Below, one piece after another: positions 34,640 through 42,560 of a stretch of DNA of 49,093 nucleotides. Position 1 is the first letter of the stretch. Each line of letters begins with the position of its first letter. Under the pieces are notes generated by a model. That model searched no databases and had not been told where the DNA came from. It worked only from the letters and a program-made list of their open reading frames with translations. The position numbers and the translations under genes are program-made. The stretch covers positions 1 to 49,093 of the IMG/VR virus record IMGVR_UViG_2718218136_000007; one strand, given 5' to 3'. Source of the stretch: a virus (taxonomy: Duplodnaviria; Heunggongvirae; Uroviricota; Caudoviricetes).

Positions 34640-35133
34640 TAAGCCCCCACGTAATTCCCTGACAGATACCACTCTTCACCCGATGCAGCGCGCTTGCTGC
34701 TTTTCCGTAAGCACCGCTCACGATGCGCCAGAAAATTGTTTCGTTCTGGCTGGGAGTGGCTTTCACGGAATGCCGCCATCCACACCGTTGCAGCTCGACG
34801 GAATAAGCCCCTGGACTCCAGTTCTTCAGCCTGGCGGGTCAGGCACAAAATCACCCGGGGGTCGTTAGTGCCGACATAGAAATTGCGCACAGGTCTGGTT
34901 TCACGAACAGATTGTGGTTCCGGCTCCTGCGCTCTCTCAGTCAGGCGCGGGAAATGTCTGCGTGTATCTCCTTCACAACGGTGAGCCACACGCCCACTCT
35001 GACGTAACTTGCTTGCTGACTGCAGAACGCGCTGCCGTGAGTAACCAGCAAAAGCATCCGCAATGTCTCCGGAAGTACACCCCGGATGGGCTTCAATGAA
35101 TTTCTGAACTTCATTCAAAAGACTCATGATCAC
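34639..35133 (-). CDS. Hypothetical protein, possibly PerC-like regulator
   Basis: 164 aa; C-terminal half contains EELESRGLFRRAATVWMAAF, reminiscent of the PerC-family motif as recalled; weak assignment. Confidence 0.35.
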   Translation of the reverse strand: MIMSLLNEVQKFIEAHPGCTSGDIADAFAGYSRQRVLQSASKLRQSGRVAHRCEGDTRRHFPRLTERAQEPEPQSVRETRPVRNFYVGTNDPRVILCLTRQAEELESRGLFRRAATVWMAAFRESHSQPERNNFLAHRERCLRKSSKRAASGEEWYLSGNYVGA

Positions 35134-35948
35134 CCCCTGAATCCTGCCGGGATCTGGCTGTAGTCCACGTTGTCGTAACTGGATTTGAAGTACGGGTCCT
35201 CACGTCTGGCTGCAGATACCGCAGGAACTTCCCAGGATTCTTCGAAATGACGATCCGGACCAAAGAACGTGACAGCCTGTTTCACAAATTGTGTGCCGCT
35301 GTTACCCATCGCAGATACCCAGCCCGCATAGCGTTTCACACCTTCCAGCATGGTTTCGGGGTTTACCCCCTCATTCAAACGGGCTTTCCAGGCTTTGAAG
35401 GCTGCAGATTTTGAATTGCCACCAGCACGTTTGGGATATGCCAGCCATGCCTGCTCAAACTCCGGAGAATATTCCGGTCGGTTTGAACGAACTCGCACGG
35501 ACTCATCAACTGATGCACCAACAGCTATTGGTTCATTGACTGGTTCTTTGACTGGTTCAAAAGAGTGACTGGTTCTGGGTGAATCTCCTGCACTACCCCC
35601 TGGTGCAACTCCTGCACTACCTGGTGAATTTGCTGCACCAGATAGTGAATTATTTGCACTACCACCTAGTGAATCTCCTGCACCATCCAGATGAAGGAGA
35701 TAGATATTACTTGAGTTACCTTTTTCACCTTTCCGGGTGACTTTTTTTACCAGCCCGGACTCACAAAGGGCCGCAATATGATTCATCACAGAACGTTTGC
35801 TAATCTCGCACTGGTCAGCAATATGCTGGTAGCTGGGCCAGCACTCACCCTGATCGCTGGCATTATCAGCCAGCTTGATCAGAACCAGTTTTCGCAATGG
35901 ATTACCCACTCGAATTTTCATCGCTTTAACCATCAGCTCCATACTCAT
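35130..35948 (-). CDS. Replication initiation protein (lambda O-like architecture: N-terminal wHTH, Gly/Ser-rich linker encoded by iterons, C-terminal domain)
   Basis: 272 aa; N-terminal wHTH (ISKRSVMNHIAALCESGLVKK); low-complexity linker GGSANNSLSGAANSPGSAGVAPGGSAGDSP; position downstream of cro/cII-like genes. Confidence 0.65.
   Translation of the reverse strand: MSMELMVKAMKIRVGNPLRKLVLIKLADNASDQGECWPSYQHIADQCEISKRSVMNHIAALCESGLVKKVTRKGEKGNSSNIYLLHLDGAGDSLGGSANNSLSGAANSPGSAGVAPGGSAGDSPRTSHSFEPVKEPVNEPIAVGASVDESVRVRSNRPEYSPEFEQAWLAYPKRAGGNSKSAAFKAWKARLNEGVNPETMLEGVKRYAGWVSAMGNSGTQFVKQAVTFFGPDRHFEESWEVPAVSAARREDPYFKSSYDNVDYSQIPAGFRG
35579..35688. repeat. Five direct repeats (about 20 bp, about 22-bp periodicity) inside the replication gene: candidate origin iterons
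   Basis: Repeat units starting at 35579, 35602, 35623, 35644, 35668 with consensus (G/A)GTGAAT-YWYYTGCAC(T/C)A; followed by a moderately AT-rich stretch 35690-35760. Confidence 0.55.
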
Positions 35949-36181
35949 GCTGCACCTCCGAGATGCTTCATGTTTTTTCCGGAGCGAAAGGTTATAAGCG
36001 GCATACTGACGCGGTAATTACGGCCCAGCGGTTCACAAATCACCTTCTGACATTCACGGTCAACCAGGCTAACACGTAGAACATGCCCTGCAGGCGTGGT
36101 GTACCACTGCCCAACTGTAGGAATTGATGTTTTTTTACGCTGAAATAAACGGTAAATGTTGAGGATCAACGGATTAAGCAT
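35945..36181 (-). CDS. Hypothetical protein (78 aa)
   Basis: ORF only; stop overlaps the replication gene start. Confidence 0.35.
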   Translation of the reverse strand: MLNPLILNIYRLFQRKKTSIPTVGQWYTTPAGHVLRVSLVDRECQKVICEPLGRNYRVSMPLITFRSGKNMKHLGGAA

Positions 36182-37010
36182 GACGATGCCCTCCGCTGAT
36201 ATTCAGGAGACGGTGAATATGAAAATTAGCCTTATCCGCCAGACGAATACGTTCAGCCTGCAAGTTAATAAGGGTTTCTACCAGAACCTGATGCGCCTGC
36301 GGATCCGAAAGAGTTACCTTGCGCAGAGCACGTAGTGCAGTTGTTACATAACTGAGTTTATGTAAGTCTTCATCATTCAGACGAGTGAGGGCTGGGACAG
36401 TAGCCATGATGGCAGCCTCCTTGATCGGTGAAATACTTCCACCACCGGAAACGCCAATTTCGCTGGTGGTGAACTGAACGGGGTTGGCGTAACCGGTGAT
36501 CAAGGAAACCGGCGCATCTTTCGATGCCCCCGCCCAGCCCACCATAACTTTGATGTGAGCAAATGCGGACGATAAAAAAGACGCTGGCGCGTCATATATC
36601 GCCTTGATCAATTCCAGGACGCCAATCCCGGCACCCGCTTTATAAGGTGCCTGAACAGTGTAACGTCCCGGAATGGCAGAATCAATGTGCTGGTGGTCCT
36701 TCACACTCAACAAAATCACGCCTGAATTTCCACAAAGGACTAAAGCACTCATGCGGGTAGTCTTTGCGAAGATAGATAACGCGCTGTGTTTCTGGTTCCC
36801 AACGAATAACATGGACATAAAGCCCTCTTCCGTCACGAAACCAGCGGTTAAGTTCCCGCACAACTCGCCCCCCACAGTCAGGTAAAGTTCTCTGTGGTTA
36901 CTTACAGCCAGGTGATTTGGTAATCTGCATTCATGCCGTAACAACAGGTGTTCAGCGACACTGACCACCAGCTGTTGCGACAAACGGTTATTTGCCGTTA
37001 AACTGTTCAT
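36174..37010 (-). CDS. Hypothetical protein (278 aa)
   Basis: ORF in operon context between the cII-like and replication genes; no family recognised by eye. Confidence 0.45.
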   Translation of the reverse strand: MNSLTANNRLSQQLVVSVAEHLLLRHECRLPNHLAVSNHRELYLTVGGELCGNLTAGFVTEEGFMSMLFVGNQKHSALSIFAKTTRMSALVLCGNSGVILLSVKDHQHIDSAIPGRYTVQAPYKAGAGIGVLELIKAIYDAPASFLSSAFAHIKVMVGWAGASKDAPVSLITGYANPVQFTTSEIGVSGGGSISPIKEAAIMATVPALTRLNDEDLHKLSYVTTALRALRKVTLSDPQAHQVLVETLINLQAERIRLADKANFHIHRLLNISGGHRHA

Positions 37011-41231: not shown

Positions 41232-42560
41232 CTGAGAGATCCCCTCATAATTTCCCCAAAGCGTAACCATGTGTGAATAAATTTTGAGCTAGTAGGGTTG
41301 CAGCCACGAGTAAGTCTTCCCTTGTTATTGTGTAGCCAGAATGCCGCAAAACTTCCATGCCTAAGCGAACTGTTGAGAGTACGTTTCGATTTCTGACTGT
41401 GTTAGCCTGGAAGTGCTTGTCCCAACCTTGTTTCTGAGCATGAACGCCCGCAAGCCAACATGTTAGTTGAAGCATCAGGGCGATTAGCAGCATGATATCA
41501 AAACGCTCTGAGCTGCTCGTTCGGCTATGGCGTAGGCCTAGTCCGTAGGCAGGACTTTTCAAGTCTCGGAAGGTTTCTTCAATCTGCATTCGCTTCGAAT
41601 AGATATTAACAAGTTGTTTGGGTGTTCGAATTTCAACAGGTAAGTTAGTTGCTAGAACCCATGGCTCCTTTGCCGACGCTGAGTAGATTTTAGGTGACGG
41701 GTGGTGACAATGAGTCCGTGTCGAGCGCTGATTTTTTCGGCCTTTAGAGCGAGATTTATACAATAGAATTTGGCATGAGATTGGATTGCTTTTAGTCAGC
41801 CTCTTATAGCCTAAAGTCTTTGAGTGACTAGATGACATATCATGTAAGTTGCTGATAGGTTTCCAGTTTTCCGCTCCTAGGTCTGCATATTGTACTTTTC
41901 CTCTTACTCGACTTAACCAGTACCAACCCAGCTTCTCAACGGATTTATACCATGGCACTTTAAAGCCAGCATCACTGACAATGAGCGGTGTGGTGTTACT
42001 CGGTAGAATGCTCGCAAGGTCGGCTAGAAATTGGTCATGAGCTTTCTTTGAACATTGCTCTGAAAGCGGGAACGCTTTCTCATAAAGAGTAACAGAACGA
42101 CCGTGTAGTGCGACTGAAGCTCGCAATACCATAAGTCGTTTTTGCTCACGAATATCAGACCAGTCAACAAGTACAATGGGCATCGTATTGCCCGAACAGA
42201 TAAAGCTAGCATGCCAACGGTATACAGCGAGTCGCTCTTTGTGGAGGTGACGATTACCTAACAATCGGTCGATTCGTTTGATGTTATGTTTTGTTCTCGC
42301 TTTGGTTGGCAGGTTACGGCCAAGTTCGGTAAGAGTGAGAGTTTTACAGTCAAGTAATGCGTGGCAAGCCAACGTTAAGCTGTTGAGTCGTTTTAAGTGT
42401 AATTCGGGGCAGAATTGGTAAAGAGAGTCGTGTAAAATATCGAGTTCGCACATCTTGTTGTCTGATTATTGATTTTTCGCGAAACCATTTGATCATATGA
42501 CAAGATGTGTATCTACCTTAACTTAATGATTTTGATAAAAATCATTAGGGGATTCATCAG
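41232..42560 (-). mobile_element. IS10 (1329 bp) insertion sequence
   Basis: Ends CTGAGAGATCCCCTCATAATTTCCCC (inside end, 41232-) and ...GGGGATTCATCAG (reverse complement of outside end CTGATGAATCCCC, ending 42560); flanked by 9-bp direct repeat TGCTGAGTA. Confidence 0.9.
41245..42453 (-). CDS. tnpA: IS10 transposase (IS4 family)
   Basis: 402 aa, MCELDILHDSLYQFCPELHLKRLNSLTLACHALLDCKTLTLTELGRNLPTKA... characteristic of Tn10/IS10 transposase. Confidence 0.9.
   Translation of the reverse strand: MCELDILHDSLYQFCPELHLKRLNSLTLACHALLDCKTLTLTELGRNLPTKARTKHNIKRIDRLLGNRHLHKERLAVYRWHASFICSGNTMPIVLVDWSDIREQKRLMVLRASVALHGRSVTLYEKAFPLSEQCSKKAHDQFLADLASILPSNTTPLIVSDAGFKVPWYKSVEKLGWYWLSRVRGKVQYADLGAENWKPISNLHDMSSSHSKTLGYKRLTKSNPISCQILLYKSRSKGRKNQRSTRTHCHHPSPKIYSASAKEPWVLATNLPVEIRTPKQLVNIYSKRMQIEETFRDLKSPAYGLGLRHSRTSSSERFDIMLLIALMLQLTCWLAGVHAQKQGWDKHFQANTVRNRNVLSTVRLGMEVLRHSGYTITREDLLVAATLLAQNLFTHGYALGKL

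Follow-up and report, generated by a model that had tools for sequence, protein, structure and literature searches.

Five iterons and a conserved 28-bp element in the initiator gene of an SfV/Stx2c-type lambdoid prophage: a probable replication origin

The DNA analysed here, hereafter the window, is the 49,093-bp stretch of IMG/VR record IMGVR_UViG_2718218136_000007, a complete lambdoid prophage. On its minus strand, genes for a cro-like, a cII-like and an Ash-family protein, a 78-aa open reading frame (ORF), a replication initiator, and PerC-like, Dam, LexA-DNA-binding-domain and RusA proteins follow one another in this order, with the cI repressor gene on the plus strand just past the cro-like gene. 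The initiator gene contains five direct repeats (iterons), which a first reading of the letters alone (the original prediction) had proposed as a candidate origin, and a conserved 28-bp element next to them. From comparative sequence evidence, we consider it very probable that the iterons and this element form the vegetative origin of an SfV/Stx2c-type lambdoid prophage, built like oriLambda.

The assignment of the gene as a replication initiator was borne out by profile searches. Residues 17-67 of its product match Pfam HTH_36 (PF13730) at 44.1 bits (cut-off 25), the protein matches PHROG 270 'replication initiation protein' with an E value of 1.8e-88, and its N-terminal and C-terminal halves match separate PHROGs. 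At the DNA level, the gene is 98-99% identical to SfV orf39 'replication protein' and to its counterparts in Stx2c-converting phages, mEp460 and Ayreon, and the window's replication region shows 98.5% identity with Stx2a_WGPS2, the Eru6 representative (PMC8951638). Phage_rep_O was absent from the Pfam matches of the initiator at E values up to 0.01, which comprised HTH_36, DnaD_N (below its cut-off), B-block_TFIIIC and HTH_20. NCBIfam gave no family for the initiator or its neighbours, a sequence search against solved structures returned only marginal winged-helix regulators for the initiator, and no nuclease motif or family match appeared in the Pfam, NCBIfam and solved-structure searches. 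In the AlphaFold2 model, the N-terminal domain has a predicted local distance difference test score (pLDDT) of 80-92 and the topology H-H-H-H-strand-strand; its recognition helix reads EISKRSVMNHI and its wing KGNSSNIY. Residues 91-156 are predicted to be disordered (pLDDT below 50), and the C-terminal domain, modelled as helical from residue 160, presumably recruits a loader or helicase.

An exact search of the 49,093 bp for GTGnAnnnnnTGCAC returned five matches on the plus strand, starting at 35579, 35603, 35624, 35645 and 35669, all within the initiator gene, where ~0.4 would be expected on both strands of the whole window. The array was also the top-scoring repeat of the window in Tandem Repeats Finder (35579-35683, score 77), in agreement with the claim that the gene holds five direct repeats, and a repeat-family search recovered three of the five copies in register. 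The starts given in the original prediction (35579, 35602, 35623, 35644 and 35668) refer to these copies, with one extra base at the front of four. The spacing is indeed close to two helical turns, although it is 24/21/21/24 bp for the array motif GTG(A/C)A-N5-TGCAC and not the uniform ~22 bp first proposed. Scanning with the consensus and allowing up to 3 mismatches gave 12 matches, compared to 5.15 +/- 2.09 in shuffled sequences; the copies in the array have 0, 2, 0, 3 and 0 mismatches. Read on the coding strand, each iteron is an imperfect palindrome, GTGCA-N5-T(T/G)CAC, whose half-sites lie 10 bp apart centre to centre. At one helical turn, this distance suits a winged-helix protein that binds as a dimer.

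The repeats do encode the interdomain linker, as had been suggested: the array covers codons 89-124, between the winged helix and the C-terminal domain and within the segment modelled as disordered, and specifies G(S)A(G/A/N)(D/N/V)S(P/L) units. The five copies differ from one another only within the central spacer, and every one of these changes is nonsynonymous. A run of five G or five C, in either orientation, precedes the last iteron in 118 of 138 distinct related origins. It should be noted that this GGGGG/CCCCC run encodes Gly-Gly or Pro-Pro, and that in the window and the 138 related origins the last iteron is spaced at 24 bp, compared to 21-23 bp for the inner ones. The DnaA box TTWTNCACA has four matches in the window, none of them less than 5 kb from the array and with no excess over chance. 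No sigma-70-like promoter was found in 35000-36300, and no Rfam family overlaps the origin, the only matches of the window being C4, isrK and RNA-OUT, elsewhere. The coordinates of the features are collected in Table 1.

Table 1. Features of the initiator gene and the putative origin (positions in the window).
Feature	Position	Strand	Remarks
Replication initiator gene	35130..35948	-	272 aa; N-terminal winged helix, disordered linker, helical C-terminal domain
N-terminal winged-helix domain coding region	35694..35948	-	Residues 1-85; putative origin-binding domain
Least stable 30-mer of the window's gene	35698..35727	.	~37% G+C; just upstream of iteron 1; from nearest-neighbour stability and composition profiles
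Iteron 1 (gene order)	35669..35683	-	GTGCAGGAGATTCAC (coding strand)
Iteron 2	35645..35659	-	GTGCAAATAATTCAC
Iteron 3	35624..35638	-	GTGCAGCAAATTCAC
Iteron 4	35603..35617	.	GTGCAGGAGTTGCAC; 5-bp inverted half-sites perfect
Spacer before last iteron	35594..35602	.	9 bp with G5/C5 run (CAGGGGGTA on coding strand)
Iteron 5	35579..35593	-	GTGCAGGAGATTCAC; adjoins the conserved 28-bp element
Invariant 28-bp element	35549..35576	-	AGAACCAGTCACTCTTTTGAACCAGTCA; directly after last iteron
GAACCAGTCA(A/C)n direct repeats	35525..35576	-	Spacing 18, 12, 12; overlap the invariant element
C-terminal helical domain coding region	35133..35480	-	Residues ~157 to 272

The conservation of the iterons was assessed in relatives, of which 80 loci came from one-genome-per-species contigs; 82 loci were scanned for the class-A motif. 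We found one to six copies in 42 of the 82, always at nt 265-436 of the gene, and no match elsewhere in ~8.5 kb per locus on either strand. These loci belong to Pseudomonas, Aeromonas, Marinomonas, Shewanella, Kosakonia, Enterobacter, Vreelandella, Marinobacter, Zymobacter and Microbulbifer. A spacing of 23+22 bp in the Pseudomonas, Aeromonas and Enterobacter genes puts the second copy out of frame with the first, where it specifies VQ(E/Q)IH and not GAxDS. Three loci (L023, L052 and L042) carry only inverted copies, with GExSA as the encoded peptide, and one copy is flipped in many Pseudomonas loci. Given that the same DNA motif thus encodes three unrelated peptides, selection on the peptide is ruled out. 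Moreover, the half-sites keep their A/T wobble bases in genes with a third-position G+C fraction of 0.6-0.7. The original prediction had turned on whether conservation goes beyond what coding constraint explains, as it does here: the motif is kept in two frames, in both orientations and in many genera.

The family is large: 5,426 proteins matched at E values up to 1e-5, and a single 90%-identity cluster holds 2,852 sequences. Alleles of Escherichia coli, Shigella and Salmonella, 242-302 aa long, differ only by whole linker units, and the copy number ranges from 2 to 9 in E. coli variants. The DNA was checked for two of these alleles: one of 302 aa carries nine iterons, the result of a 90-bp duplication, and a common one of 250 aa carries two. 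Truncated initiator ORFs were seen in three relatives (L034, L079 and L007, with 133, 172 and 201 aa, respectively). The L034 ORF changes frame at the last iteron and stops within the conserved element, which suggests a decaying prophage with its origin DNA still intact.

A blastn search of a phage collection with the 201-bp segment holding the iterons and the element matched 141 records, including ST64B, cdtI, 62 Vibrio phages, and Klebsiella, Pectobacterium and Serratia phages. It also matched the gene named 'O' in Stx phage 24B (vB_EcoP_24B, HM208303.1, 12548-13324), which belongs to the HTH_36 family, not to lambda O, and carries three GGGGCAGGAGCTGCCC iterons and the conserved element; the 'P' of this phage is annotated as a large helicase-containing protein. 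A record of the Thermus phage Riverbug (PQ109080.1, H44) has 160 bp with 70% identity to the iteron and element region. This host is unexpected for a motif otherwise confined to Gammaproteobacteria. The match may be due to chance or low complexity.

The loci that lack the class-A motif have other repeats at the same position, and the repeat class follows the recognition helix and wing of the initiator. This was observed in 73 genome loci and 74 viral loci, the latter, from IMG/VR, being retrieved by the DNA pattern of the element and not by protein. Iterons of the form GTG(C/A)A..T(G/T)CAC pair with the helix EIS(K/R)RSV(M/I)NH, whereas GTGAC-N5-GTCAC pairs with EISKRSVMRH, which differs from the window-class EISKRSVMNH by one N-to-R change. 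Likewise, GGGC(A/G)-N5-TGCCC pairs with EI(G/A/S)RSTVKxH and the wing GELNQSN, TAGGC...AAGCA with EIDRSTVRKH, and TGCCG-N5-(T/C)GGCA with ECSKS(A/T)VRxH and the wing NGKGNASN. With one mismatch allowed in the ten half-site bases, the 73 genome loci hold 267 copies in the linker region versus 42 elsewhere. The helix/iteron pairings recur in the independent IMG/VR contig set. The co-variation gives indirect support to the binding of the iterons by their cognate initiator, and we are largely confident that the five repeats of the window are the initiator-binding sites of a replication origin.

Adjoining the array, the original prediction had overlooked the GAACCAGTCA 12-mer repeats and, within them, the conserved 28-bp element. 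Tandem Repeats Finder reports 35529-35559 with a period of 12, and the repeat-family search also finds the 12-mers. The anchor CAGTCA[CGT]TCT occurs exactly once, on one strand and at this place only, in 64 of 81 loci tested, and its presence is independent of both the iteron class and the C-terminal domain. A looser anchor aligns the element in 78 loci; there the third positions over its nine codons are 90-100% identical (~97%). For comparison, GECWPSYQHIADQCEI, an invariant peptide of these genes, reaches just 65% identity at its third positions. The element does tolerate nonsynonymous F/S/L changes. Judged by these wobble positions, the element is under selection at the DNA level. An exact scan found it in at least 120 IMG/VR contigs, with one copy in each of the 80 loci listed.

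We then considered where the DNA might open. The window has no 40-bp A+T-rich tract beside the array, and its low-stability spots are 35698-35727 and the element (~43% G+C). In the nearest-neighbour profiles of high-G+C loci, no 30-mer of the gene, or only one, is less stable than the element. Its strands fold no better than shuffled ones (z +0.6 to +1.0), which gives no sign of a hairpin or single-strand initiation signal, and comparison by eye with the IHF, CRP, LexA and PhoB consensus sequences gave no convincing match. The element is a candidate unwinding or single-strand recognition site; we put the chance that unwinding takes place there at about even, the segment at 35698-35727 being the alternative.

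Turning to helicase loading, the C-terminal domains of the relatives form clusters, each with its own downstream gene. In 22 related loci, among them that of Kosakonia, the nearest relative outside E. coli, the type found in the window has a DnaC-like AAA+ gene behind it (Pfam IstB_IS21, E 5e-17; PHROG 50 'DnaC-like helicase loader', E 1.3e-74). A second type precedes a lambda P homologue (E 1.6e-66), and in a single locus, L045, the N-domain is paired with a DnaB-like helicase. Two further types are always followed by a conserved protein without a Pfam family: one of ~265 aa with PHROG 6028, of unknown function, in Pseudomonas and others (L005-L032 and L047), and one of ~165 aa without a PHROG in Aeromonas (L060, L067, L072, L076 and L077). 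Since these two proteins sit where relatives have DnaC-like or lambda P loaders, they are candidate new helicase loaders. The N-domain with its iterons thus combines with different pairs of C-terminal domain and partner, which indicates exchangeable modules, in the architecture of lambda O-P and P22 18-12.

In the window, the gene next after the initiator is PerC-like. Profile hidden Markov models built from the partner proteins of related loci (DnaC-like, lambda P, DnaB-like and primase-helicase) had no match in the six-frame translation of the 49 kb, so the earlier remark that no P-like or DnaC-like loader lies nearby extends to the whole window. Given this lack, and the DnaC-like gene that accompanies the same C-terminal type in relatives, host DnaC-DnaB is the best inference for loading. 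Whether the C-terminal domain itself engages host DnaC-DnaB is, on these comparisons, an evenly balanced proposition. Two products found in SfV-type loci alone, that of the 78-aa upstream ORF and the PerC-like protein, may be loading helpers.

A broader reading, which we hold tentatively and rate a little below an even chance, is that AGAAYCAGTCACTCTYYTGAAYCAGTCA would be a universal, sequence-specific initiation site, common to all specificity classes of this family of gammaproteobacterial phage initiators and recognised in its single-stranded form or else by a host factor that is conserved. The origin would then carry a two-part code, in which variable iterons set specificity and a universal 'landing pad' serves melting or helicase entry. 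This pad would be independent of whether the phage has a loader, a helicase or a primase-helicase, loader-less members would use host DnaC-DnaB alone, and the orientation-independent G5/C5 run would belong to the same architecture.

Initiator binding, the place where the DNA opens, the way the helicase is loaded and the activity of the origin are all inferred from the sequence, and the events may run as follows. Upon induction, transcription from pR would allow the initiator to be made, and its dimers would fill the imperfect palindromes with half-sites GTGCA and T(G/T)CAC. The occupied array would bend or wrap the DNA and destabilise a flank, most likely 35549-35576, which is conserved, unstructured and relatively A+T-rich, or alternatively the A+T-rich 35698-35727. 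The C-terminal domain, on its flexible linker, would then bring the replicative helicase, probably host DnaB via host DnaC.

Several other explanations were weighed. The one that survives best, though we find it unlikely, concerns the 28-bp element, which might be mainly a recombination linker or a nick or priming site for a rolling-circle-like start, as proposed for the winged-helix Rep proteins of pHW126-type plasmids, and not an unwinding site. In two E. coli metagenome contigs (L082 and L083), the element is the exact point at which window-identical DNA meets another N-domain and the iterons belonging to it, so the element also marks a recombination junction. As for nicking, a winged-helix Rep nicks the origin of pIGMS31, which is made up of a conserved region and four iteron-like repeats of 20 bp (bioRxiv 10.1101/2022.12.05.519187). 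However, ~97% wobble conservation across orders of Gammaproteobacteria exceeds what occasional recombination maintains, the initiator has no match to a nuclease in the searches named above, and its relatives' partners load helicases of the DnaB type, in keeping with a theta-type origin that melts. A role as recombination linker is compatible with the element being part of the origin and may additionally be true.

It is less probable still that the repeats bind the initiator for regulatory ends (autoregulation, a transcriptional roadblock ahead of the early genes downstream, handcuffing copy-number control or incompatibility), with the true origin elsewhere. The co-variation of helix and iteron does report recognition and not origin firing, plasmid iterons have control functions too (PMC4980987), and perC, dam and rusA follow the array in the early-right operon. 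Yet the 49-kb window has no comparably strong repeat cluster elsewhere. The array always stands at the boundary of the N- and C-terminal domains, beside an unstructured element conserved at the DNA level, and travels with helicase-loader modules like oriLambda, whereas a site that is only regulatory would need no in-gene position in every lineage. Finally, the idea that the repeats are a slippage by-product of a low-complexity Gly/Ser/Ala/Pro linker, without DNA function, accords with the predicted disorder of the segment, with copy numbers that change by whole units and with the shared frame and similar peptides of the window's five copies, but we reject it as extremely improbable since the motif is kept in another frame and inverted with unrelated peptides, its wobble bases are fixed against host codon bias, and it varies in step with the recognition helix, whose domain lies at a distance of 30-60 residues.

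The putative origin of the prophage invites comparison with known systems. The likeness to lambda ori that had been proposed holds for the position of the iterons within the gene: in oriLambda, and in the six-iteron Stx phages 933W and P27, direct repeats of ~15-19 bp with internal dyad symmetry and about two helical turns apart lie in the linker-coding part, between the origin-binding and the loader-binding domains. The iteron number varies between lambdoid phages (4 versus 6; PMC7466680), and some relatives of the initiator are followed by a true lambda P homologue. The likeness does not extend to a lambda-type AT-rich tract, which is not obvious here; instead of a long A+T-rich tract, the window has the 28-bp element common to all specificity classes. 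Its initiator is HTH_36 and not Phage_rep_O, its iteron sequence is unrelated, and the phage has no P gene. According to PMC7466680, which cites Dodson 1986, Wickner & McKenney 1987 and Learn 1997, two iterons and the adjacent tract are sufficient for the unwinding of oriLambda in vitro, and lambda O binds the single-stranded A+T-rich DNA.

In P22 (gene 18/gene 12) and phage L (gene 18), as in the window, the origin repeats lie in the initiator gene and are type-specific (PMC8022706). The P22 partner is a DnaB-like helicase, as in L045, whereas the window has no phage helicase, and phage L has 11-bp repeats, in contrast to the window's 15-mers with inverted half-sites. Among the 'Eru' replication regions of Stx phages, in which the Eru5 and Eru6 proteins are of the HTH_36 type (PMC8044961, PMC8951638), that of the Eru6 representative has the 98.5% identity with the window's region given above, and the 'O' protein of phage 24B belongs to the same family. 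These papers classify gene content only; text searches of both found no words for origin or iteron. We found no published account of this origin, nor of an SfV orf39 origin; the SfV genome paper (PMC134923) may mention it.

The iteron plasmids RK2, pSC101, R6K and P1 share with the window a winged-helix initiator, iterons and adjacent short direct repeats that are possibly recognised as single strands. Their unwinding element consists of 13-mers, and host DnaB-DnaC is used if no loader is encoded (PMC4980987). Unlike theirs, the origin of the window is intragenic, is without DnaA boxes and has an initiator of a different family. Plasmids of the pIGMS31/pHW126 type were considered as the same kind and rejected: the layout is similar, but their Rep belongs to a different family with nicking activity.

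Taken together, these sequence patterns strongly support a design that is that of a classical lambdoid in-gene origin, unusual in its universal, sequence-conserved flanking element and in the absence of a phage loader. The family covers Stx2c- and Stx2a-converting phages, phage 24B, SfV, ST64B and cdtI, whose toxin output is driven by replication, and a defined origin offers a target for replication-blocking or incompatibility experiments. The iteron class and recognition helix provide a rule predicting which prophages share replication specificity, while the naturally swapped pairs of helix and site form a series in which DNA recognition by winged helices can be studied. Moreover, the loader-less layout combined with a universal element gives a testable handle on how a host helicase is recruited without a phage loader.

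Some minor observations concern the surroundings of the initiator gene. Two genes downstream of it, at 33663-33989 on the minus strand, a 108-aa protein consists of the LexA DNA-binding domain alone (Pfam E 2.9e-19), without the S24 peptidase part, and this protein is kept at the same place in SfV-type modules. On the other side, Rfam places C4 antisense RNA at 36462-36549 (82 bits) and isrK at 36574-36650 (64 bits), both on the minus strand and within the 5' part of the 278-aa 'Ash' ORF (36174-37010). Given that the PHROG matches of this ORF begin only at residue 103 and that C4 and isrK lie inside it, the ORF is probably over-called; the region 36462-36650 is probably an antirepressor module of the P1/P7 type under antisense control, lying between cII and the replication gene. 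Farther away, RNA-OUT (42446-42515, plus strand; Rfam, 98.8 bits) overlaps the start of a 402-aa minus-strand ORF (41245-42453), an overlap that is the signature of an IS10-type insertion sequence within the prophage.

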